Positions 1 through 61,133 of a stretch of 64,000 nt of DNA are shown one piece after another (the stretch's first letter is position 1; each line of letters opens with the position of its first letter). A model generated the notes under the pieces. The model had not been told where the DNA came from. It saw nothing but the letters and a program-made list of their open reading frames with translations, and ran no database searches. The position numbers and the translations under genes were made by a program. The stretch lies in assembly GCA_000091205.1 (NCBI GenBank), contig AP006500.2. One strand, given 5' to 3'. The DNA comes from Cyanidioschyzon merolae (lineage: Eukaryota).

Positions 1-657
1 GTCACGGCGAACGACGACGAGATCCCCGACTTGAACGTCGCGCCAAGCTTTGACGTGACTTTCCGCGTCAGATGCAGCATTTCCACTGTTCAGAACTTCA
101 ACAAGCGTCGCGTTAACACGACGATCCTCTCGATATCGCTTCAGGTCCTCGGCGAGCTCCTTTACGGCAGTGATAAAAATCAGAAAAGCCAGAGCCGCCA
201 GTGTAGCGTACCGGCCAGCAGTAAACACCGGTGTTATCGAGGAAATGAGGTACAGGATACCGACTATAAGGAAATAGAAGTTGGCCGGCCGCAATAGCTG
301 GCGCACCAGAAAGACTGGAACAAACGTCCACAGCTCGTACTGCGTTGTTGATATGTAGTTGCTCATGAAGCGCTGCTTCGCGTTGAACGTCGGGTTATTG
401 AGACGTACCACACGCGGTTCCGTCGACCGTTGCCGCTCAAACAGGGGACGCAAATCAGGATCTTTCAGAAACTGCACCAGACCGGCGGCGGCTCGCCGCC
501 ACCACGGCTGTGTCGCACTCGACGCAGTACTTGCTGCTGCAGGCGTGAACGCGCCAGCTCCGCCACCAACCCCCACGGTGGTACCGTTTAGCGAGTCATT
601 GCCTGAGGCAGAGGAAGCGCTGTCACGATCTCGTGACGCCGATGCCTCGAACCTCAT
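1..657 (-). CDS. P4-type phospholipid-transporting ATPase (flippase), N-terminal fragment; the gene continues beyond the left window edge
   Basis: I translated the reverse complement of 1-657 by hand: ATG at 657..655, then 219 codons open to position 1. The product is ...RVVRLNNPTFNAKQRFMSNYISTTQYELWTFVPVFLVRQLLRPANFYFLIVGILYLISSITPVFTAGRYATLAALAFLIFITAVKELAEDLKRYREDRRVNATLVEVL...AWRDVQVGDLVVVRRD. This matches the canonical P4-ATPase N-terminus (NDP..N...F..N.ISTTKY...TFLPKFLFEQF.R.ANLYFL...LQ.IP.ISP) through TM1/TM2 to the start of the actuator domain. It is missing from the ORF track because no stop codon occurs inside the window. Confidence 0.8.
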   Translation of the reverse strand, partial: MRFEASASRDRDSASSASGNDSLNGTTVGVGGGAGAFTPAAASTASSATQPWWRRAAAGLVQFLKDPDLRPLFERQRSTEPRVVRLNNPTFNAKQRFMSNYISTTQYELWTFVPVFLVRQLLRPANFYFLIVGILYLISSITPVFTAGRYATLAALAFLIFITAVKELAEDLKRYREDRRVNATLVEVLNSGNAASDAESHVKAWRDVQVGDLVVVRRD

Positions 658-6797: not shown

Positions 6798-7984
6798 GAC
6801 TCTCTCGGAAGTCTCGAGAGTTCGCACCAAAGTCCTAGTTCTACAGCGTACCCCGTTACGTCCGAGGGTGCGGTCCGTACCCGAGCAGACGGACCCCGCC
6901 AGAACTGCCCCGCAGCGCCCGTTCGAGGGTTACGTTCGGCGACCGCCACGAGAGGCTGCAACTCCGGACCTCCCAATGCGGGCACAGGGGGAACGCTCTG
7001 TAAAGAGGTATTTGCGAGAAAGAAGCTGCCGTGTTCGCCCCGTGAAGTGTTAGGTCTGAGCTGGGGTTTCGGAGTTCTGAATGGAGGGTATCCCCATTCA
7101 GAGACACTGGGGGTGGTACACCGCAGGTTTCTACTGCGGCTGTGTTGCTGCCGGTGTCTACCTGGGCTACAGACGGGAGCGACACTGGCGGGAGCAGGGC
7201 GTCGGTCTCCGCAGTCCCCGCCAGCCGCCGCTCTTTTTTCTCGGGAAGGACCGTACGACGAAAGAGTACTTGGAGCAAAAAGGTGAGACCGGCAGTGGAG
7301 CGCTCACGCAAGGCGCTCCGCGCTCACGTCCGCAGCGCTAATCCACGTCGTTTGTTGTGTGCGTGGTGACGGTGCCCGGTGCCGCGACTGATGCCGTGTA
7401 AGGTTGGGAGGAAGAGCGCTGTAGAGGTAGGGAAAGATGGGACTGGAATGGAGAGTGCATTTTGGAAAACTGGGTTGCTAAGCCCAATTTCTAGAAGCAC
7501 GCACTGCGCTTTTGGGAGTTGCGACGCTCTCCGGGCAGGTAGCAGGCAAACGAGAGACGGAACCTTGACCTGTATCGTTGAACCCGGACGCGTGCTTGAA
7601 TATCGAAGGGATACAAGCCGCGCGGCCTGACACAATGCTTCAGGTGCAGCCTACGTCTTGACGTGGGCAAATCATGTGCATAGGCGTTGGGGGTGTTCGT
7701 AGGCGCTGTGCTCTATACAGGGACGCACATGCGTCTGGTGCGCGTTGCCTGGGGGCATGCATCTCAGCACTCGATGCGACGGATATTACGAGTCAGACCT
7801 GCAGTGATGGAAAGCCCATGTCGGATAAATTTTTCTGTTAGAGTTTCACACATGGGATGGATTATCGAGAATCACGCTCCACCGCATCGCATGCCGTATA
7901 CTGGAGGATGCAGCGCGCAACATTCACTGACGAAATCATGGTGCGACATGGGCACTGCGGCACGCGCCTAGGAATGGTATGCAT

Positions 7985-8215
7985 AACATGCAAGCACCAT
8001 AGGTACTGTGCATTTCTCTGGACTCTGTATCTTGGCTTGATATGGGCATCGTGATACCGATAACACGCAAGCACCATAGGTACTGTGCATTTCTCTGGGC
8101 TCCGTATCTTGGCTTGATATGGCCATCGTCATACCGATAACACGCAAGCACCATAGGTACTGTGCATTTCTCTGGACTCTGTATCTTGGCTTGATATGGC
8201 CATCGATGGAGGCTC
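7985..8215. repeat. Minisatellite: ~78-bp unit x3 (gcaagcaccataggtactgtgcatttctctggactctgtatcttggcttgatatgg(g/c)catcgtgataccgataacac)
   Basis: Unit starts are spaced 78 bp then 77 bp (the string gcaagcacc at 7989, 8067, 8144) with only a few substitutions. This explains the near-identical short ORFs listed at 7857-8253 on both strands. Confidence 0.8.
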
Positions 8216-10092: not shown

Positions 10093-11730
10093 TCAGGCTG
10101 TGATAGAGTCCAGGGCGGCTGTCTCCGCGATCCGACGTCCGCGGCTACCCGAACGGTATCCCGCAAGGAAGCGCTCCCACGGCATAATCGACTGGTGGCC
10201 GTCGCTCCAGTTCACGGCGAGGGCGTAATTCCCGACATTCATCATTTGCATCGGGTATATGTTGTCGTCAACTGAATTCGGATCCAGCAGTTGTTTGCCG
10301 GTACACTCATCCACGCATGCGGCACAACGGCACGCCCTCCGGAGTGCTGCAGGTTGAATGCGCTCCTCCATGTGATCCTGGAGCTGCACCACAATTTCAC
10401 GATGATCTGCATCCCACCTCGCTTGTGGGATGGGTACAGCTCCGAAGCGAACCCGTGCACATTCCTGAACGATGTTTTCGGCGATTCGGCGGTAGCATTG
10501 GAAAATTTCACTCGTCTCGGGGAGCGTGAGCGTTACAGGCGTTCCCGTATCGCCAGCCGCGTTGATCTCGGGCCATAGTGGCACTTGGAACGTGCTGCGA
10601 ATGCCGAACTCTCGCGATATCCGGGCGCTGTGCCCTTTTCCGAAGAGATCATAGCGTTTTCCTGTGTCCGGAGCAACGAAATAGGCCATTGACTCCACGA
10701 CTGCAATCGGCGGAACAGCCATTTTGTCTAGAAGCTGGATACCCTTCACAACGTCGGCGAACGCGAGGCGTTGCGGTGTGGTTACGACAACCGCTGCAGT
10801 GGCCTTCAGCACCTGGCCCAGGGTGATCTGAATATCACCAGTGCCAGGCGGTAAGTCCACCAAAAGGTAATCGAGTGAGCCCCAGTCGGTCTGCTGGATG
10901 AGTTGCGTGAGGAGCGAGGAAACCATGGGTCCTCGTAGCATCGCCGGATCTGAGTTGATGTAACCAAAGCTCATGAGTTTCACACCCGCACGCGTCAGCG
11001 GCACCATGAGCCCGTCTGGGGTCAGTCGAATCCGTTTCTCGTTGTGTTCGGGATTCACCATGATCGGCAGCGATGGCCCGTAGATATCCGCATCGAGAAT
11101 ACCCACTCGAGCGCCGAGCCTTGCCAGCACGAATGCCAGATTCACAGCTGTGGTGGATTTCGCTACGCCGCCTTTGGCGGACGTCACCAGAACGATGTTA
11201 GAAACCTGTGAAAGCGGATCGCGCGATCCTCCCGCTTCAGGTGCCGCTGCACTTGGCGTCTGGGCTGTTAGCCGTACGTTCGCACGCGTGACGAACGGCA
11301 GGCTCTCCGCAAGCCTCGTGCATTCCTCACGAAAACGCTCCTTAATGGGGCATGCTGGCGTCGTCAGCTCAACATCGAACGATACGGTTCCATAGTGTTC
11401 ATCACCTCCGAACTGTATATTCTTCACAAACCCCAGCGTCACAATGTCCTGCCCCAAGTCGGGGTCCACGACTGCTTTCAGCGCAGAGAGCAGTTGCTCT
11501 GTTTTATCTGCGACGCTAAGTGGACGCTCAGACTCGTTGGCACAACAGACCAATCGACGTCTTTGGGTTGAAAGCCTTACATTCCGAGCGCTTTTGACTG
11601 GCTGCCTGCAGCCGCTGCCCCAGTACCCCCTGGCGCACGCAGCACAGCCTGGTGCCCGCCGCTGCAAACGACCTGCCGCCGCGACACCTAACGAACAGAA
11701 TGCTAGACTTGTGACAGTGCCTTGCTCCAT
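10093..11730 (-). CDS. HCF101: HCF101-type Fe-S cluster assembly ATPase: N-terminal DUF59/MIP18-like domain, Mrp/NBP35 ParA-type P-loop NTPase, C-terminal DUF971; with an N-terminal targeting-like extension
   Basis: The DUF59-like region is DKTEQLLSALKAVVDPDLGQDIVTLGFVKNIQF...TTPACPIKERF. The deviant Walker A is VTSAKGGVAKSTTAVNLAFVLA, and the Mrp motifs DYLLVDLPPGTGD and VVESMAYF are present. The C-terminal DUF971-like region is QLQDHMEERIQPAALRRACRCAACVDECTG...YALAVNWSDGHQSIMPWERF. This three-domain order is diagnostic of HCF101 rather than NBP35/Cfd1/Ind1. The track start 11796 is TTG; the first ATG is at 11730 (checked). The N-terminus is rich in S, R, A and C. Confidence 0.88.
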   Translation of the reverse strand: MEQGTVTSLAFCSLGVAAAGRLQRRAPGCAACARGYWGSGCRQPVKSARNVRLSTQRRRLVCCANESERPLSVADKTEQLLSALKAVVDPDLGQDIVTLGFVKNIQFGGDEHYGTVSFDVELTTPACPIKERFREECTRLAESLPFVTRANVRLTAQTPSAAAPEAGGSRDPLSQVSNIVLVTSAKGGVAKSTTAVNLAFVLARLGARVGILDADIYGPSLPIMVNPEHNEKRIRLTPDGLMVPLTRAGVKLMSFGYINSDPAMLRGPMVSSLLTQLIQQTDWGSLDYLLVDLPPGTGDIQITLGQVLKATAAVVVTTPQRLAFADVVKGIQLLDKMAVPPIAVVESMAYFVAPDTGKRYDLFGKGHSARISREFGIRSTFQVPLWPEINAAGDTGTPVTLTLPETSEIFQCYRRIAENIVQECARVRFGAVPIPQARWDADHREIVVQLQDHMEERIQPAALRRACRCAACVDECTGKQLLDPNSVDDNIYPMQMMNVGNYALAVNWSDGHQSIMPWERFLAGYRSGSRGRRIAETAALDSITA

Positions 11731-12969
11731 AGCGCTCCTCTTCTCAGAAATAGTGACCAGAAAACTTTTCGTATGGTAGCCGCTCAACACGAACAACTCG
11801 CGCTCAAAACCTCACAGCACCGAGTGCTTGGTGCAACGAACAGACGCTTCCGCGGACACAGTGCCCACACGAGAACGTCGAGTGCAGCTCGTTCGAGACG
11901 CACACACTGAGCCCTACCGCTACACACAAGGAGAAACTGTGGACACTGCTCAAGGCTGGTTGGCACCAAGCACACACCAAAAGGTAACAGCTTTCGTGCG
12001 GCTTCGAAGAAAAAGCACGCGTTGCGCTGCTGCCTTACGGAGGCTGCTCCAGCGGCTCGGGCGACGGCAGCGCAAACCGATGGCGTGGACCTGCGGTGCA
12101 CAAACGCACACGCGGTGGCAGTCCCAGAGTCGCAAAACGCCTACTCTTTCTTTTCCTGGGATCTGTCTGAGGACACAGACTCAATGGGACATTCTTCTGC
12201 TCGTTCTACTGCTGACTTTCGATGTTGTACGAGCGTTTTATGTTCATGTCCAACCTCGATGTGCCAAGTTCAACAACAAGGGTTCAAGGGATGCATCGGT
12301 AGTTTCGGGATTGAAGGACGCGCTTGCTGCTGTCGGGGTCGGAGCGCCCGCTATGCTGCGCATTTTCTGGTGTAGGCGCAATGAACTTAACCAGAATTTC
12401 CCGAATGTGCGACTGCGCTCGACACTGAACGCGGAGATCACGGTTGCTTCACAGTGACCTGTGCATCGCGTGTGCTCCATCCTGGTGTTCCCGCTCAGCA
12501 CAGCGGATGGATCCGTCTTGTGCGCCGCCGGATCCCGAGTCTTCCACGGGTGCTTGGCGAAACCCTTGAGGCATCCGTGCCGTCGTCACCACACGGCAAC
12601 AGACCGAGTTTGAGATCCCTCTACGGGCGACTGCTCGAGATGTAGCGATGGATGCATCACGGCCGCTAGCGCTTTGCAGAGGCAGCGCAATGTTGCGACA
12701 AGTGACGGGCGTTGGCTCCGGACAGCGCATACCGCATATGTGCGCACTATTCCCATACAATACCCAGACTTTGTGCAACCGCCATTCATAAACACAAGCT
12801 TGATGATTTACATAGCATTGGAGGTTTCGTTATCGAACACCTGTCCCCTGTGACGGACCGGGCAGCTTCGGCGTTCCGCGCACATCTACGGACACAATGC
12901 ACTGCCGCCAAACAACTTGTTGTTGCTTGCATCCAGGTCCATGAAAAAGCAATGATCGAGCCTGTAGGC

Positions 12970-39051: not shown

Positions 39052-39735
39052 TTACCAGTAAGGTTTCTTTTGCTCAGCATAGACTTGCTTTTGCTGATCC
39101 TTGGCACATACCTCCACTTTTTCATACTTCACACAAACGTTTTCCTCCTTAACGCATTTCTTGCCATAGGATTCGCAGTTCTGCACGAAGGAGATGCATT
39201 TGCCCTCTGCGTGCTTTGCACATACTTTCTTGTACTTGGCACATACCTTGACGGTTTCGTATGCGCTACCGTAACGCTTGCATTTGTTGTAGTCCGTCTC
39301 TTCAGCGATGCAGATCTGCACTTTCTTACAGAACTGCTTCGCTTGTTGTTGTTGTTGCTGTGGCGAAGACCAACGCTGGGCCCAATACTTGTCCTGCTGC
39401 TGTTGCTCCTCGACATGTTGGCAGTCTTCCTTGTAGCCGTACTTGGAACACTTCTTTCCATACTCAACGCAAACCTGCACAGGCTTCTTTTCATACTGAT
39501 ATTCAACACACTTTTCCTCGTGCTTCACGCAAAGCAGCTCGTATTCTGCGCAGACGTTCACGGGCTTTAGGCAGACGGCCTCGTACTTGGTGCAGTTGTA
39601 ACCGTACTGGACGCACTGCGTTTCATAATAGCACTTCTGCTTCGCTTCATTGGAGAGTGCCCATTGCGGTGCAACGATGACGAACGCAATCGCCAATAGC
39701 AAAATAGAGAAACGCAAGTGTCCTGGTTTCATCAT
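39052..39735 (-). CDS. Secreted Cys/Gln/Tyr/Lys-rich protein with heptad-spaced cysteines, family member 1 (~227 aa)
   Basis: ATG ATG at 39735/39732 (checked), then the signal peptide MMKPGHLRFSILLLAIAFVIVAPQWALS. The mature protein has block A, QKCYYETQCVQYGYNCTKYEAVCLKPVNVCAEYELLCVKHEEKCVEYQY...VCVEYGKKCSKYGYKEDCQ. A QQQQ/YWAQRW linker follows. Block B is QFCKKVQICIAE...KCKRYG...VCAKYKKVCAKH..KCISFVQNCESYGKKCVKEENVCVKYEKVEVC. It shares architecture with 42162-43073, 57223-59091 and 60204-61133. Confidence 0.75.
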   Translation of the reverse strand: MMKPGHLRFSILLLAIAFVIVAPQWALSNEAKQKCYYETQCVQYGYNCTKYEAVCLKPVNVCAEYELLCVKHEEKCVEYQYEKKPVQVCVEYGKKCSKYGYKEDCQHVEEQQQQDKYWAQRWSSPQQQQQQAKQFCKKVQICIAEETDYNKCKRYGSAYETVKVCAKYKKVCAKHAEGKCISFVQNCESYGKKCVKEENVCVKYEKVEVCAKDQQKQVYAEQKKPYW

Positions 39736-42161: not shown

Positions 42162-43073
42162 TCAGCCCCACCATTGCATGTTGCCACCAGTGTAGTACTG
42201 CTGCTGCTGCTGCTGCTGCTGCCCTTTCTTAACTTGGGCGTACTGCTGCTTCTGTTGTTGTCCTTTCTGAAATTTGGCATACTGCTGCTTCTGTTGTTCT
42301 TGTTGCTGCTGCTGTTGCACGATCTGCGTAGCCTGTACCTGCTCTTGCTGAGCCTGTTGGCAAACCTGGACATTTTGATACTGCTGGCAAACCTGCTGGT
42401 ACCCTGTGCACTTCTGGCCGTACTGTGCGCATCCTTGCTCGTATTGCTCGCATTTGCCTTGTTGATACTGTGTGCACTTGTTCTCGTATTGCGCACACAC
42501 CTGTTCGGTTTGGTACTGCGTGGTATACTTCAGACACTTGTTCTTGTTCTGTTGGTACTTTGCGCACACCTGCTTGCAAACCGGCGTCTGCTGCCATCGG
42601 CGCATTGCGCCGTTCCATCCTTTCTTCTCCTGAACAGCCGCGGAAACCTGCTGCTTCTGAGGTGCTGGGGCAGGCGCAGGCTTCTGTGGTGCGACTTGTT
42701 GTTTTTGTTGCTGCTGCTGCTGCTGCTGCTGCTGAGCAACCGCCGATATTTGCTGCTGCTGCTGCTGCTGCTCGCAGCTAGAAGTGTATTCAACGCACTC
42801 CTGTGCATATTGTGCGCAGACCTGCACCGGCTTTTGCACAGTCTGGTACTGCACGCACTGCTGTTCCTGCTTCACGCACTCCTGCGCATACTGCTTGCAC
42901 TGCTGAATAGGCTGCAGGCATACCTTCTGATAACCAGTGCACTGGTTGCCATACTGAACACACTGCTGCTGCGTACTGCACTGTTGGTTCCAGGCAAACA
43001 CACCGGTTGTTACGGCACAGAAGGCCCAGACCAGAAGCACGACACGAGCAAAACTTGAATATCTAGACGACAT
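42162..43073 (-). CDS. Secreted Cys/Gln/Tyr-rich protein with heptad-spaced cysteines, family member 2 (303 aa); contains poly-Gln tracts encoded by (CAG)n
   Basis: ATG at 43073 (checked), signal peptide MSSRYSSFARVVLLVWAFCAVTTGVFA. Block A, QQCSTQQQCVQYGNQCTGYQKVCLQPIQQCKQYAQECVKQEQQCVQYQTVQKPVQVCAQYAQECVEYTSSCEQ, has Cys at 7-residue spacing. Poly-Q linkers follow. Block B is ...QTPVCKQVCAKYQQNKNKCLKYTTQYQTEQVCAQYENKCTQYQQGKCEQYEQGCAQYGQKCTGYQQVCQQYQNVQVCQQ. The tail is Q/K/Y-rich. The + strand ORF 42174..43058 (poly-Leu) is the antisense artefact. Confidence 0.8.
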   Translation of the reverse strand: MSSRYSSFARVVLLVWAFCAVTTGVFAWNQQCSTQQQCVQYGNQCTGYQKVCLQPIQQCKQYAQECVKQEQQCVQYQTVQKPVQVCAQYAQECVEYTSSCEQQQQQQQISAVAQQQQQQQQQQKQQVAPQKPAPAPAPQKQQVSAAVQEKKGWNGAMRRWQQTPVCKQVCAKYQQNKNKCLKYTTQYQTEQVCAQYENKCTQYQQGKCEQYEQGCAQYGQKCTGYQQVCQQYQNVQVCQQAQQEQVQATQIVQQQQQQEQQKQQYAKFQKGQQQKQQYAQVKKGQQQQQQQQYYTGGNMQWWG

Positions 43074-43539
43074 AATATGCTACCAATCTCTAGGAACGTT
43101 CTAAGGAACAAGACCAATAAAGTTTTTACTGTGACCATGCAATCCATCAGCCGGCAAGCCCATCACCCGGCCCCATGGGACACGTGAGCATAAGCCACAA
43201 ATCTGGCTGAACAGAGCCCAGACACGTTTCGCTTCCCCGCTCGATACGATTCTACAGGCCATCCAGACGCGATGCACCGGGAACCTGTGGCGCAGAGGCA
43301 CGCACAGAATGTCCGCATTGAGATCTCGGATCCTGTGACGGTGGTGGCGGGACGTGTCCGCGGCGCTTTCGGGTCCGTGTCCGTGTCCCGATTCATATCG
43401 AAGGGAAAAACAGCGCATCGCGTCGTGTCCCGGGCGTGCGGCGGACGCGACTCGTGAGTTTAGGGACAAAAATGGACATAAATAATCCGCGACCATAGGG
43501 TAAAAAATTTCTACCCACAGCTGGCCTCCAGGCTCTTTC

Positions 43540-44920
43540 GACTAGACCCCGGTATCGACTCAAGTTTCTCTCTCCACCCTCCAGCTTGCGAGGCTGTATC
43601 ACGAAATTAGATAGGAGGAGCCGCTCGGGTCTCGTACTGAGCACGGCACGTTGTCTGATAGTGATAGCGGCGTTGAAGTCTAGGTTCGCGAACTCCCTGC
43701 GTGGTTTGACGCTGGTCGAACCCACGTATACAAGGATTCCTCGAAGTGGTGCCCTTTGCGCCGCTACAGTCTCTTCATAGTCATGTCGCGCAAACTTTTT
43801 CCCGTCTATCTCACCTCTTCTACACCCGAGATCTGGGGGAGAAGAGGATTTATTGTTCTTTGTCGAACCCGGCGATGAAGGCCCTCTAGAATCCCCGAAT
43901 TCCATGTCCATGCAATCCTTTGGATTTTTCCTTCAACATAAACGAACCTCTATGCACTTAGGTGAGGACCTTCCCGGAGCGAGAAGGACTTGCAGTAGAA
44001 ACACGACATGTGCCTGGGTGTCTCCATGTGCTGAACGCCTGAGCGATTCACCCAGTGGAACGATCGTTACGTTTCACGATTGAAAATACTCGCTCGACGG
44101 AATTGAACCACTGGGAGCACGGAGGAAGGAGAAGCAGCCCTGCACCCCAATTGATTGGGAAAAAATCTCGAATGCAACGGGAATGGTGAAATACTAAGTT
44201 GTCTAACAGACCGACGTGTCCAAACGTCAGGGGAAAGTCTTCAATAGTTCGACAAAGTGATTGGTGCTGTTGTATGAGCCTTCTCTACGAACGAAATTGA
44301 GGCCGACAAATGAATCCGCTGCAGCTAGAATAGATGATAATGTAGTCGTTCTCTTCGAGTTCGATCATATATGCGATGAGCTCCCTCACCGCGAATATCC
44401 ATACATGCGCTGACCGTACCGTTCGAAAGAAGTCTCATCGGATCAAAAAACAAACCGACGTTTCAGTGCTTCTTACCGATCGAGACGTTCGGGGAACTCC
44501 GGGGTTGCGATTTCGATGGAAGATAACCGTGCGTGATGTAGGACTCGCTTCTAGCGACTGTATTCAAGTGTTCTCGGGGCCACACGAATAAGTTGTTGAG
44601 AGGCAGAGACGCCGGTGGCAGCCACTATCTTCGCTTTCGCCTTGCATAAGGTGATGAACAGGTCGCATTCTGCCATGGACCGCAAGCACGCTTTGAAAAC
44701 GTCAGTTTTGGGCGCGGAACGTATATACTTGTTTCTTTCTTTCATTATCCCTCAACAATCTGAGTACTATGGTATAACTGACGTGATTGAGGAATGCAGT
44801 CCTGTATGGGATGTTCAGTAAAGAATACATCCCACTGCGATTCATATGCAACATATTCGGTTCATTGCCTCGTGATTTCGATCTCCAGCCCTACACCGCA
44901 GCTGGAGTGAAACAAAACTG
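43540..44920 (-). mobile_element. Tc1/mariner-type degenerate element, copy B (~1.4 kb)
   Basis: Alignable with copy A throughout: left end 43540-43700 against 17440-17600, the internal degenerate transposase region, and right end 44750-44920 against 18690-18850. The ends are inverted-repeat-like (agtttctctctccaccctccagc... against the reverse complement of ...gctggagtgaaacaaaac). Confidence 0.55.
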
Positions 44921-51120: not shown

Positions 51121-53150
51121 ATGAGTATTATAAAGGCGCCGTTAGGACTAATGCATTTGGAGAAGGATACGTGTCGCAACGTGACGGACATCAAAACAAT
51201 TGACGTTCTGGAAGAATTTTTCAACAAGACCTTCACCCGCCACCTGATGCTTGGCACCGGGGAAACGTCGAGTGGAAATGAGCGAGCGCATGCCCTCCAC
51301 GAAAATCACGCCGAATACCGCATCAGCGGTACTCGATCCAGGGGCGACTTGTGTATTGACACCTGCGGGGCAGTCAGGTACTTCACGAACCTAAAGATCC
51401 ATTTGACCGTGAAACTCGAATGCTTCACGATACGCGTCCTGTTTGCGCTGTACTCGGGCCTCTCGCGCACAGGAATATGGGTCATTATCGATGGCATCAC
51501 GAATGATCGCCAGCACGAACAGGAGACTGAGCTCGTCGAAGAGAAGATATCACACAGGAGAACGAATGAGGCTTCTGTCATCCGTGCGGCTATGCAAGAG
51601 CATCGTGCGGACTTGGTGCTCGCGCATCCAGCAGAAAAGGTATCAGATATGAAAAAAGATGAAGAAAGATGCTGTTCCCGAGCCCTGCGCTATTTTACGC
51701 TTTTGGGCCGGGATCTGGAACGCATGGCCGAAAAGCAGCTGAGTCGCGGAAAAATGAAGATTCGGAGGAATGGAAGGCTTTCCTAATGGGTACGCGCCTC
51801 AACGTCGTTCCGATATGCAGCGCCAACTCATATTTCGTGGCAGTCTGCTCCAGCGTCCCTCATGGCATCGTGAGGGATATCTGTCCGGAGTTCGATGCAG
51901 GCAAGAAGGAGTTCATGGGCCAAAACCGGGAAACTCATTGGAAGAATATCTTCGATTTCAAACGTCTCAATACGGGCAAGAAAGGGTATTCACGGGGACC
52001 ATCGGAAGCGATGGGGCAGCCATGTGTGTACATTACCGGCGGCTGGGGGCGGATCGTCCTATCGTGCCTTCGGCTTCGCCCTCGCCGAAGCATGAAGAAA
52101 AGAAGGAGGCAGATCCTGCGACTCAGGAGGTGCAGGATAACGAGCTTGTCGCTGGCTCGGCGAAGCATGAAGAAAACAACAAGGCGGATCCTGCGACACA
52201 GGAGGTGCAGGATAACGAGCTTGTCGCTGGCTCGGCGAAGCATGAAGAAAACAACAAGGCGGATCCTGCGACACAGGAGGTGCAGGATAACGAGCTTGTC
52301 GCTGGCTCGGCGAAGCATGAAGAAAACAACAAGGCAGATCCTGCGACTCAGAAAGTGCAGGATAACGAGCTTGTCGTTGGCACCGACCCGGGGAACACAA
52401 ATATCGTTACCATCGCTGCACCCAAGCGTGCGGAAGATGGTCCTGACGTTAGCTCACGTCAGAAAGACATGCTTCTTTTAAAGTTCTAAACATAGAAATA
52501 CCATCGAGAATCGGGAATACTGAATACGAGGAAGAAAATCGAGACGTGGAATGCCGCAGTGCAAGAGCATCTGGAAGCTTTGAGCGAGCTGACGAGCCGA
52601 GGAGCGGACTTTCAGGCTTCTCGGAAATCCATGAAAGTTCGTGTTGCTCATTGGGAGGCGCTGTGGGATGAGTATCCAAAGCCCCGGTGGGCTCGTCAGC
52701 GACTGATCTTGTGCTGTGGGAAACAGGGAGCGTTCGCCAACTTTTTCAATGCGTTCGGCGCCCTCAAAGAGGACGAGAGTCAGAGGCTCGCAATAGCGTA
52801 TGGAGCAGGGCGCTGGATGACCCAAAAAGGGTGTACACAGCTCCATCGACAAGAGCGTACAAGAAGTGTGCACATCGTTTTGTCACAATACCTATCGATG
52901 AGTTCCTAACGTCCTATATGCACCATGAGCTGGGGTGCACACTTCCGAGCGTCGAGACGGAAAAGCGTCAGCGGGGCCCTGAGGATATAGCAAAGTACGG
53001 AGCGCTGACAGAGCAGCAAGTAGAAAGTAGGGCGAAAGTTCCTGGGCTACGTGCACTGGTGCGTACAACCAGTGATGGCAAGAAACGTATAGCGTTTGTC
53101 AATCGTGACTCGAACGCCGCTATCAATACCAGGAGATGTACGGTGATGGA
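51121..53150 (+). pseudogene. TnpB/Fanzor-like RuvC-fold nuclease relic, interrupted by frameshifts and stop codons
   Basis: The three RuvC motifs occur in the right order but across shifted frames. RuvC-I (G.D.G....A) is LVVGTDPGNTNIVTIAAPK, ending the ORF 51770..52489, with the stop TAA at 52487. RuvC-II ([DN]E.[YF]TS) is TIPIDEFLTSYMHHELGC, about aa 65-84 of ORF 52687... RuvC-III (RD.NAA.NI) is IAFVNRDSNAAINTRR, about aa 135-150. The zinc-finger CxxC pairs are degenerate. A 75-bp x4 tandem repeat lies inside the relic. The relic abuts the IMP peptidase gene in the same frame. Confidence 0.45.
52087..52386 (+). repeat. 75-bp tandem repeat x4 inside the TnpB/Fanzor-like relic
   Basis: The unit gaagcatgaagaaaacaacaaggcggatcctgcgacacaggaggtgcaggataacgagcttgtcgctggctcggc is nearly identical across copies. 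In the RuvC-I frame it encodes (AGSAKHEENNKADPATQEVQDNELV)x4. The last copy runs into ...QDNELVVGTDPGN (the RuvC-I motif), so the repeat is a duplication of the RuvC-I lead-in. Confidence 0.8.
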
Positions 53151-53364
53151 GACGAGACCCCCGGAGTTGATACGATCCAACTTTACGCGGCAGCCTCTCA
53201 AGGTGAACTTACCCAGGGACAAGTTGGAACCAGTAGTAGGTGGCCGGTCCAAAAAGACCGGGAGGCGTCTGCACGTCAGCGTACCGACATCCACACTATC
53301 GGCGTCGTGTATATGCGTCGGTATACCTGTTTGGTCTGTGGTAGCTGAGAAGCATGGCCCGTGG

Positions 53365-53964
53365 ATGCCTTTTTCGAGTCGTTTCTTTCGGCAGCTGGTT
53401 CGCGGTGTCAGCTATGTGCCGGTCGTGTACGTTGTCCACGATCTTGTCGGTACGATTGTTCCCGTGAGGGGTGCGTCTATGCAACCAACCCTGAACCCAG
53501 GTGCGGCTGCAGGGGAGCTACCTCCCGGACAAGTTAGCGGCAGTCAGGATGTCGTGTTGGTTAGCCGGCTTCTCCGCGCTGTTTGGAACGTAAGGCGTGG
53601 GGATATCGTCGTTTTGCGGTCTCCCGACGCGGGACCGCAGAAGCGACTCGTGAAAAGGGTGGCCGCTCTAGAGGGGGATCGCGTTTACAACCACCGCACT
53701 GGGAAGTTTGTGGAGGTTCCACCTGGCCACTGCTGGCTCGTAGGTGACAACCGTACGGTGTCCCGTGACTCGGCTAGCCACTACGGGCCGGTTCCGCTGG
53801 GACTCCTCGAAGGACGCGCAGTGGCGGTTATCTGGCCACCACGTCGCTGGCAGGTGCTCGCGACGTCACCAAGCACAGGTTTGTGGCTCGACACTCGGAA
53901 CAGCGAGGGAGACCAACTGCCAGCCAAGAAGCAAGTGCTGGCCAAGTCGGCAACTACGAAGTGA
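53365..53964 (+). CDS. Mitochondrial inner membrane peptidase IMP1/IMP2-like (S26 signal peptidase I family)
   Basis: The S26 boxes are present: GASMQPTL (catalytic Ser), RGDIVVLRSP, KRLVKRVAALEGDRV (catalytic Lys) and GHCWLVGDNRTVSRDSASHYGPVPLGLLEGRAV, followed by VIWP. ATG at 53365 (checked); an alternative ATG lies at 53146. The listed ORF 52687..53964 begins at GTG, and its first ~225 codons belong to the upstream TnpB-like relic. Confidence 0.78.
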   Translation: MPFSSRFFRQLVRGVSYVPVVYVVHDLVGTIVPVRGASMQPTLNPGAAAGELPPGQVSGSQDVVLVSRLLRAVWNVRRGDIVVLRSPDAGPQKRLVKRVAALEGDRVYNHRTGKFVEVPPGHCWLVGDNRTVSRDSASHYGPVPLGLLEGRAVAVIWPPRRWQVLATSPSTGLWLDTRNSEGDQLPAKKQVLAKSATTK

Positions 53965-55039: not shown

Positions 55040-55370
55040 TTGTACGGGTCGTTGCTCGTCTGCGTAGTAGCTCGTCTGTGCTGTATAGGTCGTTGCTTGT
55101 CTGCGTAGTAGCTCGTCTGGGCTGTACGGGTCGTTGCTTGTCTGCGTAGTTGCTCGTCTGGGCTGCACGGGTCGTTGCTCGTCTGCGTAGTAGCTCGTCT
55201 GGGCTGTACGGGTCGTTGCTGGTCTGCGCAGTAGCTCGTCTGGGCTGTACGGGTCGTTGCTGGTCTGCGCAGTAGCTCGTCTGGGCTGTATAGGTCATTG
55301 CTCCTCTTCGTAGTAGCTCGTCTGGGCTGTACGGGTCGTTGCTCGTCTGCATAGTAGCTCGTCTGGGCAG
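55040..55370. repeat. 41-bp tandem repeat x~8 (gggtcgttgctcgtctgcgtagtagctcgtctgggctgtac)
   Basis: Successive tcgttgct starts lie at 55131, 55172 and 55213 (period 41). Because 41 is not a multiple of 3, three units give a 41-aa peptide period (QPRRATTQTSNDPYSPDELLRRxATTRTAQTSYYADxQRPV). All three minus-strand frames are open across the array (ORFs 54604..55545, 54813..55352, 54875..55168). Confidence 0.8.
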
Positions 55371-57222
55371 GGGTGCTTTTCAGCTCTGACGGTGTCATGA
55401 ATCGTATGGGAGGTTCGCTGTTGTCCTTGTTGATAATGGCGATATTGGCCGATACGCTTACGCAGTCGGTCTCGACGAAAGACGCAACCTCTCCTGGTCG
55501 TATTGCGAAGCTGGTATTCCCGCAGTTTTTCCTTCCCGCTTGCATCTATTGCTTGCGAGGCATGGTGTCGCCACTGCCGAGCGGTGTTTCCTCGATGACC
55601 GTGAAGAAAAGCGGATTCGACTTGAGCACCGAATCGATTATTTGACGTGACAAATCCAGTCGACTTTCGGAACGGGCCTGCGAACAAGGCATCAAGGGGT
55701 GACGTCGAGGCTGTCTGCTCGTCAACCCAACAGAGCGCATTGCTGCGTCCACGAGTTGCCCTGAATCGGAAAGATCGAAAACTTGAAGCATGTGAGATTC
55801 GGGTATGCCACACATAAGGAGAGAAGAAGCGAAGCAGCTTGCAAATATGAGTTGGATATCGATTTCTGTTTTTTTACGGACCCGTGTTCGGGGGTATCGC
55901 GAATCATTCTGACTCCGATGAAGGAACGCATTCCAGCGGTAAATCGTTCAAGGTAACGCTCCGAAAACACGACCAAGAATCCTAAAACTACGCGTGAACC
56001 CGTATGCCCATAGTGCTGCACTTGGAATCTTGATGCCGCAGATCCAGAGAAAAACGTTTGGATGTATCGCAAGCTAGGAAGAGCGCAAGCAGCTCAAAAC
56101 TCCATGATAACGTAATACGGTTCTAGAGACCTGCTCTGGGGCCGCGCTCCCATCCGCAGAGGCAGCGCACGAAAGCAACAGCACTAGCCAAAAAAATGAG
56201 CTCGAACGGGTTCACATATCGGCATACATTGCATTACCGATTTCGCATGGCGTGGAACTGGGGAGAGAGCATCCCAATATGGAAACGTACTCAGCCGGGC
56301 ACGCGTCTGCATCCGCAGCATATGCGCAGGTCCCGTGAAAGGACCACCTGCGGCGCCGTGCGGCCCGCGCTGCACCAGGCCAGCTTCTCTGACAGCCTAA
56401 ACAGCGCCAATGCTCCCGTGACCTGGACTACGCTCAAGGTCTAGCTCCGCAGCAAACGACGTACCTGCTGTCGCTCGCCGCCCTGAACTAAACGCACGCA
56501 CGCGTACGCGTCCTCGAGTTGGGCGCTTCACGAAAGCGACCCGAGCAGCCGCAGGCTGCAAAACGTGCTCCCTTGTTGCCTAGCGCTTTCTCACGAGAAT
56601 AACCTCGAACCGGTACGCCTTCGAAGCAAAGAAAAGCGCCTGCGAGCTCGACCTCGTATGCAGCCTATAAACGAGGCTCCTGGGGTGCTCGTTATCGAGC
56701 TTCAGTGCACGCATCGATACAGCCCCCGCCACGTTTCCCACCGAACAAAGCACCGTGATCTCTGTTGCATCGTCATGCACCAGTCACGTATCAACCTCTG
56801 CGAAAAGCAAGCTCGATGCATACAACCAACAACAACCGTACGCATCAGCAAGCAAGCATCGAAGCAGATGGCAACAAACAGTGCCCTTGGCGCGTGCTGC
56901 TGCCTCCTTCGGGAGATTGTTTTCGGACAACGCAGCAGCGATCGCGCGCGCGCGCCTCGAAGGCCATCAGCTGCAATTCGACGCTGCCTCGAAAGTGTGC
57001 GTTCGATCCGCACTACGGCGGCGCGAGCTGTCACGACTCCGGTGACCCCCAGCGAACAGTTCGCATCGAGATAGAAGTCGAAGTTTGCAACGTGGCAGTG
57101 CCAGCTTGCGCTATAGCATGGCCCCGGAGGAGGCGCCAGTCCAATGCTTCCAAAGCAATTTGTGTTTGGACTTGTTCTAGCTCGAACAACATCTGTAATC
57201 CGATTGTATCTCATTGAAAGCC

Positions 57223-59091
57223 ATGAACATGAGGCTGCTCTATCTGGCCGCTATTGTAGTGGTCCTGGCGGCGACGCTGCTGCAAAGTGCGGCCGCCATG
57301 GACTACTATCAGAAGGATATGAAACAGAAGAAGCAGTGCTACACAGTCGAGAAGTGTGTGAAGCAGGAGCGCAAATGTATCCAATATGAGAAGGTTTGCA
57401 CGCAGCCGCAGAAGAAGTGCATCCAGCACGAACTTATCTGTGTGCAGCAAGAGAACCAGTGCAAGCAGTACGAGCCCGAATACCAGAATGTTAAAGTCTG
57501 TGTTGCGTACGAGAAAGAATGCGTGCAATGGAACTATAAGGATGAGTGCCAGCAGGAGTACGTCCAACAGAACAATTACTTCTGGGGCATGAGATGGTCC
57601 AATGAGAAGAAGAAGGAGCCTGTCAAGAAACAGTGCAAGAAAGTTCAGAACGGCTGCGCACAGTGGCAGGAGAACAAGAACAAGTGCGCACAGTATGGCG
57701 AACAACAACAGAAGATCGGACAAAAGTGCTCCGACTATGTCCAGGTGTGCACGAAGACGAAACCCGGGAAATGCATCCAGTATCAGGAGACCTGCAACAA
57801 CTATCAGCAGCAGTGTGCACAATGGGCTAACGTGTGCCAGCAGTACAAGAAGGAGATCGTCTGTCCTGAACCCAAGAAGGAGCCGCAGAAGAAAGTTAAG
57901 CAAGAGCAGTACGTGAAGAAGGACAACTACGTGTGGCGAATGTACGATCAAAAGAAAAAGTATGATCAGAAAAACGTAGAGCAGCAACAGAAGAATGAAT
58001 GGTTCCAGCAGCAGAATGAGAAGAAGCAGTACTATTGGCAGCCACAGAAGACCCAGTACTACAAGAAGAATGATTACAAGAAGAATGTTTACAACGACCA
58101 GAAACAGTACTACTGGGAGCCACAGAAGACCCAGTACTACAAGAAGAATGATTACAAGAAGAATGTTTACAACGACCAGAAACAGTACTACTGGGAGCCG
58201 CAGAAGACCCAGTACTACAAGAAGAATGACTACAAGAAGAATGTTTACAACGATCAGAAGCAGTACTACTGGGAGCCGCAGAAGACCCAGTACTACAAGA
58301 AGAATGACTACTACCAAAAGAAGGACAACTACGTGTGGCGAATGTACGATCAAAAGAAAAAGTATGATCAGAAAAACGTAGAGCAGCAACAGAAGAATGA
58401 ATGGTTCCAGCAGCAGAATGAGAAGAAGCAGTACTATTGGCAGCCACAGAAGACCCAGTACTACAAGAAGAATGATTACAAGCAGAATGTTTACAACGAC
58501 CAGAAACAGTACTACTGGGAGCCGCAGAAGACCCAGTACTACAAGAAGAATGACTACAAGAAGAATGTTTACAACGACCAGAAACAGTACTACTGGGAGC
58601 CGCAGAAGACCCAGTACTACAAGAAGAATGACTACAAGAAGAATGTTTACAACGATCAGAAGCAGTACTACTGGGAGCCGCAGAAGACCCAGTACTACAA
58701 GAAGAATGACTACTACCAAAAGAAGGACAACTACGTGTGGCGAATGTACGATCAAAAGAAAAAGTATGATCAGAAAAACGTAGAGCAGCAACAGAAGAAT
58801 GAATGGTTCCAGCAGCAGAATGAGAAGAAGCAGTACTATTGGCAGCCACAGAAGACCCAGTACTACAAGAAGAATGACTACAAGAAGAACGTTTACAACG
58901 ACCAGAAACAGTACTACTGGGAGCCGCAGAAGACCCAGTACTACAAGAAAAATGACTACAAGAAGAATGTTTACAACGACCAGAAACAGTACTACTGGGA
59001 GCCGCAGAAGACCCAGTACTACAAGAAGAATTACAATCTATACGGAAAGAAAGAAAATCCATACGTTCCGCAGTATTACTACTGGGAGTGA
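57223..59091 (+). CDS. Secreted Cys/Gln/Tyr/Lys-rich protein with heptad-spaced cysteines, family member 3 (622 aa), with a long Tyr/Lys/Gln-rich C-terminal tandem-repeat domain
   Basis: The track start 57214 is TTG; the first ATG is at 57223, giving MNMRLLYLAAIVVVLAATLLQSAAA (signal peptide). Block A is QKKQCYTVEKCVKQERKCIQYEKVCTQPQKKCIQHELICVQQENQCKQYEPEYQNVKVCVAYEKECVQWNYKDECQQ, with Cys at positions 4,10,17,24,31,38,45,58,65,74. A YFWGMRW linker follows. Block B is QCKKVQNGCAQWQENKNKCAQYG...KCSDYVQVCTKTKPGKCIQYQETCNNYQQQCAQWANVCQQY. Then come 3 x 134-aa repeats of Y/K/Q/N-rich sequence. Confidence 0.8.
   Translation: MNMRLLYLAAIVVVLAATLLQSAAAMDYYQKDMKQKKQCYTVEKCVKQERKCIQYEKVCTQPQKKCIQHELICVQQENQCKQYEPEYQNVKVCVAYEKECVQWNYKDECQQEYVQQNNYFWGMRWSNEKKKEPVKKQCKKVQNGCAQWQENKNKCAQYGEQQQKIGQKCSDYVQVCTKTKPGKCIQYQETCNNYQQQCAQWANVCQQYKKEIVCPEPKKEPQKKVKQEQYVKKDNYVWRMYDQKKKYDQKNVEQQQKNEWFQQQNEKKQYYWQPQKTQYYKKNDYKKNVYNDQKQYYWEPQKTQYYKKNDYKKNVYNDQKQYYWEPQKTQYYKKNDYKKNVYNDQKQYYWEPQKTQYYKKNDYYQKKDNYVWRMYDQKKKYDQKNVEQQQKNEWFQQQNEKKQYYWQPQKTQYYKKNDYKQNVYNDQKQYYWEPQKTQYYKKNDYKKNVYNDQKQYYWEPQKTQYYKKNDYKKNVYNDQKQYYWEPQKTQYYKKNDYYQKKDNYVWRMYDQKKKYDQKNVEQQQKNEWFQQQNEKKQYYWQPQKTQYYKKNDYKKNVYNDQKQYYWEPQKTQYYKKNDYKKNVYNDQKQYYWEPQKTQYYKKNYNLYGKKENPYVPQYYYWE
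57913..59040 (+). repeat. Higher-order tandem repeat: 402-bp unit x~2.8, each made of a 168-bp segment plus 3 x 78-bp subunits (26-aa E/QPQKTQYYKKNDYKKNVYNDQKQYYW)
   Basis: The same-frame ORFs 57995..58381, 58397..58783 and 58799..59203 are offset by exactly 402 bp and nearly identical. Within each unit the 78-bp motif cagaagacccagtactacaagaagaatga(t/c)tacaagaagaatgtttacaacga(c/t)cagaa(a/g)cagtactactgggagcc(a/g) recurs three times. Confidence 0.85.
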
Positions 59092-60203
59092 AAATCAGCA
59101 GGGAGCCACCGAACATCTGGGAGCGTCTGAAACGGTGGGGGCACGGGAAAGTTTACGGATTGGCGATTGCGCCGCTACGTACAGGTTAGACTCTTGCCAG
59201 TAAACCGATAGAGTACACCAGAATGCAGTTTGCGCTTATGGCGGGTACCTCGATCGTGTCAGGTGAGTTGCAAGGCATAGGCGCCGTGGTCTATATCGAC
59301 ACAGCATGCATGCTGTGTCTCTGCGAAGATCACCGGATCCGGCGGACGTTGCGGGCACCATAACTTAAACCACGACGGCAACATGTTACCGATATGAACT
59401 GTCATCGGTGCCAGCCCGTGACCCCCCAATAGCAGCCGCATTCAAAACAGTTCCTCATTGCAGCGACCGTGCCGCACGCATTACAAGCACCGTCAGTGAT
59501 CGTATATGCCTGCTCACGAACCCGTCGATGACTAGATTTTTTTCTACTTTCCATATACCTAACGAAACTCCTGCTCACTAGTGTGAGGCATACCTCATCG
59601 GCCCACGCGTGCGACGCCGCGAACGCTCCCCGTGTGCTACAAACATCGCGGGGTTTTGCGCCTGCCCTGTACACACGCCGGGTACGGTCGGAATGGTGCA
59701 CAGCAGAGGGCAGCAGCGTCGCGGCCAGCGCCGGCGCGTAACGCGGGAGATCATTCGACGTGAGCTCCGCAACCCCCCGATACCTGATCCCCTGCCGCAC
59801 GCTGCAATGCACATCGGCTCGTCAGCGCGCGGCAGGGCACGCTTGCGTCAACGCGGCGTCGGACACGTGTCCTTCATCGATCGGCGGCGGTCTGCGACGT
59901 GTACGCACCGCGGTCGATACGCGCGCAAACAGATTTTGCAGGCATGGGACACGACGCCGACGCCGTCGTCGAAGGGAAACGCGTTCCTGACCATTCGTCG
60001 ACTTTGCCGGGAAACATGCGATGCCGCATTCGGAGCATGCACTGCTGCCGGTGACGTGTCCCATGCACGCCGACGGCATGGCACGGCGACATCAAGGATG
60101 CAGCCTCTCCGAGCGTGCGACATTGGTGTTGAAGGCGTAGCATTCGAGTAGCGAGCGGTATTCATTCACGCGTAGAGCAATACAACTGCAACCTTAGGAA
60201 AAA

Positions 60204-61133
60204 ATGATCAAGAAAACTGTTTTGTGTTTTGCAGTAGCGCTGGTGCTTTGCATCGTAGCACCGATGAAGGGTGCGCAGGCCTGGTACAACACCGTAGCAC
60301 AGCAGGAGCAGTGCTATCAGAAGCAGGTGTGCACTCAGTATGACAACCAGTGCACAGGATATAGCAACGTATGTTTGCAGTGGGGCGAGCAGTGCAAGCA
60401 ATACGAGCAGGTGTGCACAAGCTGGGAAACCAAGTGCCTTGCCTATGAGGATGTTTACAAGACCACTCAGGTCTGCGCCCAGTACGCCCAGACGTGCGCA
60501 CAGTGGAACTACAAGGAGGACTGCCAACAGGTCAAGCAGGAGCAGAAGCAATACTATACTGCCGTGGAGACGCCAGTTGCAAAACAGGACTACAAGAAGA
60601 AGCAAGACTATGTCAAGAAGCAGGAGGATCAGCAGAAGAAGGACCAGTACATCTGGGGCCAAAACGGCTGGCGCTGGTACAACCAGGAGCAGCAGCAGAA
60701 GCAGCAGGTTCAGGTGAAGAAGGTCATCGAGACTCCGATCGCCACCCAGACCTGCAAGAAGGTGCAAGCTGGATGTGCTCGCTGGCAGCAGGACACCTCC
60801 AAGTGCGAGCAGTGGACTACAAACAAACAGAAGATCGGCGTTCGGTGCGCAAACAGCGCTCAGGTATGCTCCAACTACACACAGGGCAAGTGCGCTCAGA
60901 GCGAGCAGGTCTGCCTGAGTTATGGCCAGAAATGCACGGGCTACCAGCAAGTGTGCAAGTCGTACGGCTGGCAATGGGTCTGCCAGCAGGTTCAGGCCAC
61001 TGAACAGTACCAGCAGAAGCAGGTTTACGGCCAGAAGGAAGTATACGGCCAGCAACAGAAGCAAAAGTACCAGAAGGACCAAAAGCAGTACCAGGATCAG
61101 CAGAACTACTGGCAGAAGCAGTACATGTGGTGA
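60204..61133 (+). CDS. Secreted Cys/Gln/Tyr-rich protein with heptad-spaced cysteines, family member 4 (309 aa)
   Basis: ATG at 60204 (checked), signal peptide MIKKTVLCFAVALVLCIVAPMKGAQA. Block A is QQEQCYQKQVCTQYDNQCTGYSNVCLQWGEQCKQYEQVCTSWETKCLAYEDVYKTTQVCAQYAQTCAQWNYKEDCQQ. The linker has YIWGQNGWRW. Block B is QTCKKVQAGCARWQQDTSKCEQWTTNKQKIGVRCANSAQVCSNYTQGKCAQSEQVCLSYGQKCTGYQQVCKSYGWQWVCQQ. The tail is Q/K/Y-rich. The minus-strand poly-Leu ORF 60162..61082 is the antisense artefact. Confidence 0.8.
   Translation: MIKKTVLCFAVALVLCIVAPMKGAQAWYNTVAQQEQCYQKQVCTQYDNQCTGYSNVCLQWGEQCKQYEQVCTSWETKCLAYEDVYKTTQVCAQYAQTCAQWNYKEDCQQVKQEQKQYYTAVETPVAKQDYKKKQDYVKKQEDQQKKDQYIWGQNGWRWYNQEQQQKQQVQVKKVIETPIATQTCKKVQAGCARWQQDTSKCEQWTTNKQKIGVRCANSAQVCSNYTQGKCAQSEQVCLSYGQKCTGYQQVCKSYGWQWVCQQVQATEQYQQKQVYGQKEVYGQQQKQKYQKDQKQYQDQQNYWQKQYMW

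Follow-up and report, generated by a model that had tools for sequence, protein, structure and literature searches.

Gene C and its two-level repeat

The subject of this report is a nested coding repeat on chromosome 18 of the red alga Cyanidioschyzon merolae strain 10D. The DNA analysed (the window) is a single stretch of 64,000 nucleotides from contig AP006500.2, of about 55% GC, with long intron-free open reading frames (ORFs) on both strands. One of these, here called gene C and defined from the ORF listing and its translation, encodes a protein of 622 amino acids (aa) laid out as a signal peptide, a head with 20 cysteines and a repeat tail rich in Lys, Tyr, Gln and Asn. Gene callers pick the same frame on metagenome contigs. 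The parts of the gene, and two ORFs that run antisense to it, are listed below.

57223..59091, plus strand: gene C, 622-aa coding sequence plus stop codon
57223..57297, plus strand: predicted signal peptide MNMRLLYLAAIVVVLAATLLQSAAA, the sole hydrophobic stretch of the protein
57337..57549, plus strand: first 10-Cys half-domain, aa 39-109, Cys spacing 6,7,7,7,7,7,13,7,9
57550..57633, plus strand: inter-domain linker (..NNYFWGMRWSNEKKKEPVKKQ), resembling the S element of the tail in alignment
57634..57864, plus strand: second 10-Cys half-domain, aa 138-214, Cys spacing 7,10,14,7,8,7,7,7,9
57910..58311, plus strand: repeat unit 1 (S element 57910-58038; subrepeats 58039-58116, 58117-58194 and 58195-58272; half subrepeat 58273-58311)
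58312..58713, plus strand: repeat unit 2 (S element 58312-58440; subrepeats 58441-58518, 58519-58596 and 58597-58674; half subrepeat 58675-58713)
58714..59031, plus strand: repeat unit 3, truncated (S element 58714-58842; subrepeats 58843-58920 and 58921-58998; a third subrepeat begins)
59032..59088, plus strand: unique C-terminus YNLYGKKENPYVPQYYYWE, with the LYGKK.NP[YF]VP...YW end that is kept in orthologs
57211..58791, minus strand: antisense ORF of 526 aa, Leu/Val-rich and codon-aligned with gene C; an artefact, no gene
57896..59116, minus strand: second antisense ORF, 406 aa, Ser/Cys-rich, in another frame, without start context or the conserved N-terminal module

The hydropathy of the gene C protein (Kyte-Doolittle, 15-residue mean) peaks at 2.75 at aa 5 and stays at or below -0.03 after aa 40; the signal-peptide cleavage site, between AAA and M, was set by inspection. 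The two 10-Cys halves of the head match each other in tblastn and are thus homologous, and their 20 cysteines could form up to ten disulfides. A scan of the protein sequence found no N-glycosylation sequon (N-x-S/T), no C-terminal hydrophobic anchor and no GPI-like C-terminus. The tail (aa 230-622) accounts for 393 aa, or 63% of the protein, and so exceeds the "C-terminal half" assigned to the repeats by an earlier reading of this DNA (the sequence-only reading). It consists of 22% Lys, 20% Tyr and 18% Gln, with Tyr plus Trp at 25%, Pro at 3%, a single Gly and neither Ser nor Ala, and its calculated charge is about +88 at pH 2.

The tail is built on a higher-order array (57910-59037) in which a 402-bp unit recurs 2.8 times, in frame with the 622-aa plus-strand ORF. 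Tandem Repeats Finder reports it at 57916..59031 (period 402, 2.8 copies, 99% matches, score 2190), together with a nested 78-bp period at 58022..59031. A self dot-plot had been proposed as a check; run numerically, it gives a self-identity of 0.978 at offset 402 and 0.957 at offset 804, against a highest value of 0.494 in 100 codon-shuffled versions of the array. Units 1 and 2 are identical at 396 of 402 positions, with three of the six differences in one boundary codon (GTG vs CAA). Repeat finding, segmentation and alignment thus agree that the units are tandem, in frame and near-identical, as the sequence-only reading had described them.

The finer anatomy differs in part from that description. 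Each 402-bp unit comprises a 129-bp S element, whose product carries the signature ..QKNEWFQ.., three 78-bp subrepeats and a 39-bp half subrepeat; what had been taken for a 168-bp (56-aa) spacer has the right length, but is really the half subrepeat joined to the S element. At the protein level the array parses as two copies of S (43 aa), three 26-aa subrepeats and a 13-aa half repeat, followed by S, two 26-aa subrepeats and a diverged 30-aa end, so that two of the three proposed 134-aa units are full and the third is truncated. Each 26-aa subrepeat contains 6 Tyr, within the 6-7 that had been counted, and 6 Lys rather than about 8.

Patterns of substitution and conservation show that the plus strand (57223-59091) is the one that encodes gene C. 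The eight full subrepeats vary at eight positions, of which six are synonymous third positions, against 13% expected by random substitution; read on the antisense strand, these changes are non-synonymous. For the head, dN/dS is about 0.10 against the ortholog from a Cyanidiococcus-like contig and about 0.23 against that of Cyanidium, with dS saturated in these comparisons; such low ratios show that it evolves under purifying selection. In addition, two other genera keep the S element (..QKNEWFQ..) and the C-terminal LYGKK.NP[YF]VP..YW in their protein sequences. The choice of strand made from the letters alone was therefore right, and so was its warning that the poly-Leu ORF at 57211..58791 on the minus strand would mislead gene finders. 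The tail is written almost solely in TAC, AAG, CAG, AAT/AAC, GAC/GAT, GAG and TGG codons; AAG, CAG, TAC, AAC and GAC become Leu/Val codons when reversed, and of all 622 sense codons CTA at aa 606 alone allows an antisense stop. The long antisense ORFs thus follow from a codon composition that yields almost no antisense stops, and over the array three of six reading frames stay open. Judged by the same codon content, the ORF at 57896..59116 on the minus strand is a by-product of low complexity as well.

How old and how variable is the array? Ten hot-spring metagenome contigs carry an exact copy of CMR328C, a neighbour of gene C described below, and are about 99% identical to the window, placing them in the same species. 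Those with a complete gene C have an identical head, save for two signal-peptide substitutions, and encode products of 328, 354, 462 and 488 aa, which differ from 622 aa by multiples of 26 and 134. The contigs are short-read assemblies, four of the ten breaking inside the array, and copy-number polymorphism and short-read collapse explain the length variants equally well; the suggestion that copy number is polymorphic is thus plausible, to the same degree as collapse. A pattern scan of the metagenome for further C-type loci returned two contigs only, both already known. The units differ from one another by about 0.75-1.3%, which is comparable to the roughly 0.6-1.1% by which strains diverge in the flanking DNA, so that either the expansion was recent or the copies are being homogenised. 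The very high identity of the units does fit the recent expansion that had been proposed, which remains plausible at that level, since ongoing gene conversion would look alike. At the unit junction, ..KKNDY of a subrepeat is joined to YQKKDNY.. of S, and the underlying DNA motifs are alike (AAGAAGAATGACTAC, AAGAAGGACAACTAC), which favours unequal exchange or slippage between them; presumably unequal recombination, slippage or gene conversion keeps the units near-identical. The S element resembles the linker between the Cys half-domains, suggesting that it is an old module of the family rather than a mere spacer.

Paralogs, orthologs and the extent of the family

Gene C is one of four paralogs in the window (A to D), which are 31-42% identical and in which all 20 cysteines are invariant. 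Each has a signal peptide, two 10-Cys half-domains (spacing mostly 7), a tail rich in Gln and Lys (in some also Tyr) and an aromatic end. The other three are:

39052..39735, minus strand: paralog A, about 227 aa counted from MMKPG (the ORF reaches 39891); probably the newly annotated CMX178C
42162..43073, minus strand: paralog B, 303 aa, with a Gln-rich linker and tail
60204..61133, plus strand: paralog D, 309 aa, with a Gln/Lys/Tyr tail; an exact match to CMR328C, "hypothetical protein" (BAM82536.1)

The equation of paralog A with CMX178C rests on gene order compared with orthogroup OG0000206 in Data Set 3 of PMC13353863. B and D are the closest pair. With its signal peptide followed by 20 conserved cysteines in two halves, gene C belongs to this CMR328C-like family, whose members also have in common the heptad spacing of the cysteines, the Lys/Gln-rich repeat tail, the aromatic end and the neighbourhood. 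It differs from them in its two-level repeat and in having by far the longest tail, tail lengths in the family running from 16 aa (A) to 393 aa (C). The C-terminus is aromatic in all family members and orthologs (..KKPYW, ..NMQWWG, ..QYYYWE, ..KQYMW, ..YYWN, ..QYWY), and these ends may be a conserved terminal motif. The upstream regions of the four paralogs have no k-mer of at least 7 bases common to all; a 12-mer, ACGTGTCCCATG, lies about 80-150 bp upstream of both B (43073, minus strand) and D (60204, plus strand). In a public gene model, P0145, a CSL-type zinc-finger sequence (DPH3-like) is joined to the first ~110 aa of paralog B, probably as the result of a mis-spliced prediction.

The family has no Pfam model, no member giving a Pfam match above threshold, and a profile search of the PDB found no relative. 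When 1.84 billion cluster representatives were searched exhaustively with an HMMER profile, five clusters fell below 1e-30, all of this family; the weaker matches were unrelated low-complexity proteins with heptads of the CxQYxxxC type. Word-indexed protein searches are nearly blind to the family, so that an empty result from them does not amount to absence: the head plus the first repeat of gene C gave no match, and the family profile version gave two. The exact gene C protein, tried with three start choices, was not found in the clustered protein collection, nor were C-type proteins. On the evidence of these searches, the family is confined to the Cyanidioschyzon/Cyanidiococcus/Cyanidium lineage of acidophilic red algae, and the only membership that can be demonstrated for gene C is in this lineage-restricted, uncharacterised 20-Cys family.

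Orthologs lie in conserved synteny near genes for the S26 peptidase, Rft-1, glyoxalase and Nas2 on a Cyanidiococcus-like contig (L011) and on two contigs of Cyanidium caldarium GCA_026184775.1 (L014/L015). The HCF101/Mrp-like ORF at 10093-11796 of the window matches the C. merolae 10D protein at 100% identity; the HCF101 protein of L011 is 78% identical to it, and A, B and C all have syntenic orthologs on that contig. The one of gene C (426-1532, minus strand) encodes 368 aa with one S element and four 22-aa repeats (QPKKQDNKKNYYDQKDQKQYYW); by eye, its linker (KKPNYVWRMYDQKKKYDNKKQ) closely resembles its own S element (KKQDYVWRMYDEKKKYDNKKN), a near-identity that suggests conversion between the two. 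In Cyanidium the C ortholog encodes 464 aa (L014 8216-9610, plus strand) and lies directly upstream of the D ortholog. Here too the repeat is nested: a 384-bp (128-aa) unit, present in about 1.9 copies that are 99% identical, consists of an S element and 27-aa (81-bp) subrepeats (KVETKKPKYYVQQTKKVEATKEVQVTK) unrelated in sequence to those of C. merolae. The two-level architecture in both genera is either ancestral, with concerted evolution, or had two origins. The counterparts of the unique C-terminus of gene C are LYGKKVNPYVPENYYWN in L011 and NPFVPAQEGQYWY in Cyanidium. Another Cyanidium member (L014 4114-4803, minus strand) has a tail of eight 7-aa VIP[TK]KQ repeats.

Tail composition is 26% Lys, 17% Gln and 15% Tyr in the Cyanidiococcus-like ortholog, and 26% Lys, 13% Gln, 11% Glu, 10% Val and 8% Tyr in that of Cyanidium, so that Lys (22-26%) is the most constant feature of the tail in the three genera, with Tyr ranging from 8 to 20%. 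Comparison of the orthologs thus shows that repeat sequence and array length turn over between genera, whereas Lys-richness and YY dyads are kept, as are the S element and the aromatic C-terminus. By gene order, the A-type members correspond to OG0000206, which comprises CdcalHa5_g3944/3946/3947, CcyanHa1_g3596/g4537 and CMX178C and has no member in Galdieria partita (PMC13353863).

Elsewhere in the window there are tandem arrays of 41 bp x8 at 55041-55368 (not a multiple of 3), 75 bp x4 at 52081-52381 and 77 bp x2.9 at 7983-8205. The alignment of one metagenome contig (L003) overlaps itself over the arrays at 55041-55368 and 52081-52381, hinting at a different copy number there. Two ORF fragments, at 43393-43911 (minus strand) and 52687-53400 (plus strand), are 33% identical over 139 aa (E 1e-10), have an N.D.NAAI..R motif in common and look like remnants of a dispersed element, with no match in Pfam; the second continues without a frame break into the ORF of the S26 signal peptidase (53.4-53.96 kb), an ORF that related genera have in a much shorter form. 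A TnpB/Fanzor-like identity for two neighbouring ORF fragments, suspected by eye, found no Pfam support and was rejected. None of the CMR321-328 identifiers for which we searched is among the H3K27me3 targets in the files of PMC5405695.

A candidate wall protein and its alternatives

In light of this architecture, what might the role of the gene C protein be? Going by its sequence features, we tentatively favour, without calling it probable, a secreted, polycationic and cross-linkable matrix or cell-wall protein, with the proteinaceous, cellulose-free wall of the diploid phase as its likeliest site. Strain 10D is a haploid without a wall, and the diploid, the form that occurs naturally, has one (Hirooka et al. 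2026, PMC13353863). Cyanidiophyceae have no cellulose synthases, and the wall of Cyanidium is 50-55% protein (PMC13353863). A secreted lysyl oxidase (LOX), FAS1 proteins and RBOH are enriched in the diploid, and the updated 10D annotation gained 219 new genes (PMC13353863). A secreted lysyl oxidase-like protein (LOXL) has been proposed to cross-link unknown wall proteins (Tomo et al. 2018, PMC6508830). LOX is present in Cyanidioschyzon, Cyanidiococcus and Cyanidium and absent from Galdieria (PMC13353863); it is thus co-distributed with at least the A-type subfamily, whose orthogroup has no member in Galdieria partita.

On this proposal, the gene C protein would be exported as a structural component of the matrix or wall. 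Its tail, presumably disordered and with about as much Lys as aromatic residues, would self-associate through cation-pi contacts. Covalent bonds might then be made at tail Lys by the secreted, diploid-enriched LOX, or at tail Tyr through reactive oxygen species from RBOH, or by both routes. The number of repeats would set the valency and length of a cross-linkable, proton-repelling module, and the tail would add fixed positive charge to a wall that is thought to exclude protons.

Several points weigh against this proposal. Paralog D was reportedly already present in the 2004/2007 annotation, built partly from expressed sequence tags (ESTs) of haploid 10D, and its inclusion there means that it may be expressed in the wall-less phase. 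LOX requires an unprotonated epsilon-amine, which makes cross-linking in an acid exterior chemically awkward. The tail is without the Lys contexts of known LOX substrates (Gly-X-Y, Ala-rich KA), and an AF2 model of the gene C head, made from a six-sequence alignment, is uninformative (mean pLDDT 40). In Cyanidium, the secretion of LOXL was observed at pH 6 rather than at pH 1-3 (PMC6508830). Class III peroxidase is absent from these genera (PMC13353863), which weakens the dityrosine route. An extended form of the proposal, which we regard as unlikely, would make the family the main structural proteins of a proton-tight diploid wall of about 50% protein, with the Lys-rich tails as the natural substrates of a horizontally acquired LOX and with repeat number, evolving convergently or concertedly between genera, tuning wall thickness or proton exclusion.

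We give a small chance to the protein being instead a surface or mating protein of the wall-less haploid, serving in gamete adhesion or recognition or as a protective cationic coat, with the fast repeat turnover mirroring sexual or environmental selection. Repeats and unit lengths that differ fully between genera beside a conserved head are typical of fast-evolving surface or sexual adhesion proteins, and the annotation of paralog D from the haploid strain points the same way. However, for a protein without a membrane anchor or GPI-like end, it is hard to see what would hold it on a naked plasma membrane. Paralog A, moreover, was apparently missed by the EST-based annotation and added with diploid RNA-seq and Cyanidiococcus protein evidence. 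The phase bias of secretory genes in general (35-50% of them, in either direction; PMC13353863) is in keeping with this reading. Another possibility, to which we attach a slighter chance, keeps the secreted polycation and does away with covalent cross-linking: the tail would bind something anionic, be it polyphosphate, a sulfated or acidic glycan, or a mineral. In its favour, positive charge is the most conserved property of the tail (Lys 22-26%, Tyr 8-20% in three genera). To our knowledge, however, these algae have no silica or carbonate wall, and most carboxylate partners would be protonated at pH 1-3. Few glycosyltransferases are enriched in the diploid (PMC13353863), although Lys-rich or Tyr-rich matrix proteins are found in biomineralising systems (PMC4220933, PMC4498902), the Lys-rich ones of diatoms and molluscs being the likeness here.

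It is similarly doubtful that the head alone carries the function and that the tail is a tolerated low-complexity appendage drifting by slippage. Family tails that run from 16 to 393 aa with unrelated repeat units, and contig versions with one or two units, are what neutral expansion would produce. The synonymous excess among the subrepeats speaks against drift, as do the retention of the S element, YY dyads, Lys-richness and NP[YF]VP..YW in three genera and the nested repeat in the Cyanidioschyzon and Cyanidium orthologs alike. Finally, the array length could be an assembly artefact, or the real gene could be the minus-strand poly-Leu ORF, both of which we consider very improbable. Same-species short-read contigs do differ in length and often break in the array, across which half of the frames are open. 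Nevertheless, the units bear substitutions of their own, which a duplication artefact would not produce, and the 10D reference is a finished assembly of Sanger reads. As for the antisense ORFs, codon content accounts for them; they lack a conserved head and signal peptide, and in them the variable sites are non-synonymous.

Known repeat proteins and the red algal wall

The favoured role, a cross-linkable wall or matrix protein, has several precedents. GAM56 and GAM82 of the coccidian oocyst are secreted Tyr-rich proteins that are oxidatively cross-linked into the wall of a resistant life stage (PMC2726925, PMC4776368). The gene C protein is likewise Tyr-rich (20% of the tail) and predicted to be secreted, and dityrosine or 3,4-dihydroxyphenylalanine (DOPA) cross-linking is possible by composition. 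Nevertheless, neither Pfam nor the exhaustive profile search detected homology, GAM56 and GAM82 are not themselves Lys-rich tandem arrays with a Cys-heptad head, and cross-links of the GAM type are made elsewhere by a peroxidase class absent from these algae.

Mussel foot proteins, the diatom protein AC3362 and cingulins are extracellular and are built of short tandem repeats with Lys and Tyr that lend themselves to cation-pi and oxidative cross-linking chemistry, and the subrepeats of gene C (6 Lys and 6 Tyr per 26 aa) are of this kind. Cingulins differ in containing Ser, which the gene C tail lacks, and these algae, unlike diatoms, have no silica wall that we know of. With mussel foot proteins and AC3362 the tail has no homology, and the likeness rests on composition. 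The resemblance to adhesive or cross-linking modules that the sequence-only reading noted likewise rests on composition, cross-linking being plausible; AC3362, for its part, has a mussel-like composition yet is a wall protein with no role in adhesion (PMC4220933).

Elastin and collagen, the LOX substrates of animals, are also repetitive, Lys-bearing and secreted, and the algae own a secreted, diploid-enriched LOX. However, the gene C tail, with one Gly and no Ala, has neither Gly-X-Y nor Ala-rich KA/KP contexts; its Lys density is far higher and its setting is pH 1-3. Involucrin and SPRR, cornified-envelope precursors on which transglutaminase acts, have Gln/Lys-rich tandem repeats with fast copy-number evolution, and differ from gene C in being intracellular and of unrelated sequence. 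A likeness to plant extensins and other hydroxyproline-rich glycoproteins can be set aside: the tail has no Ser and thus no SPPP, 3% Pro and no N-x-S/T, and these algae have no class III peroxidase.

Nested tandem repeats in secreted low-complexity proteins are already known as a type of feature. What is new here is the family context, the two-level architecture that recurs in Cyanidium, and the connection with the question of what the protein wall of Cyanidiophyceae consists of and with their lysyl oxidase. The locus also serves as a warning, as three frames stay open over the array, short-read assemblies break in it or may collapse it, and word-indexed searches miss the family. If the function proves mundane, what is left is a well-documented nested coding repeat in an orphan gene. 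The composition of the protein-rich wall of the Cyanidium type has been a question since 1968, and the target of the algal LOX is another (PMC6508830, PMC13353863). Because they are secreted, Lys/Tyr-rich, lineage-restricted, clustered and co-distributed with LOX, the chromosome 18 genes are candidates for such wall proteins, and they are testable ones in C. merolae, where the haploid/diploid cycle is known and gene targeting is possible. If the extended form of the proposal, unlikely as it is, were to hold, it would mean a LOX-cross-linked, polycationic extracellular matrix outside animals.

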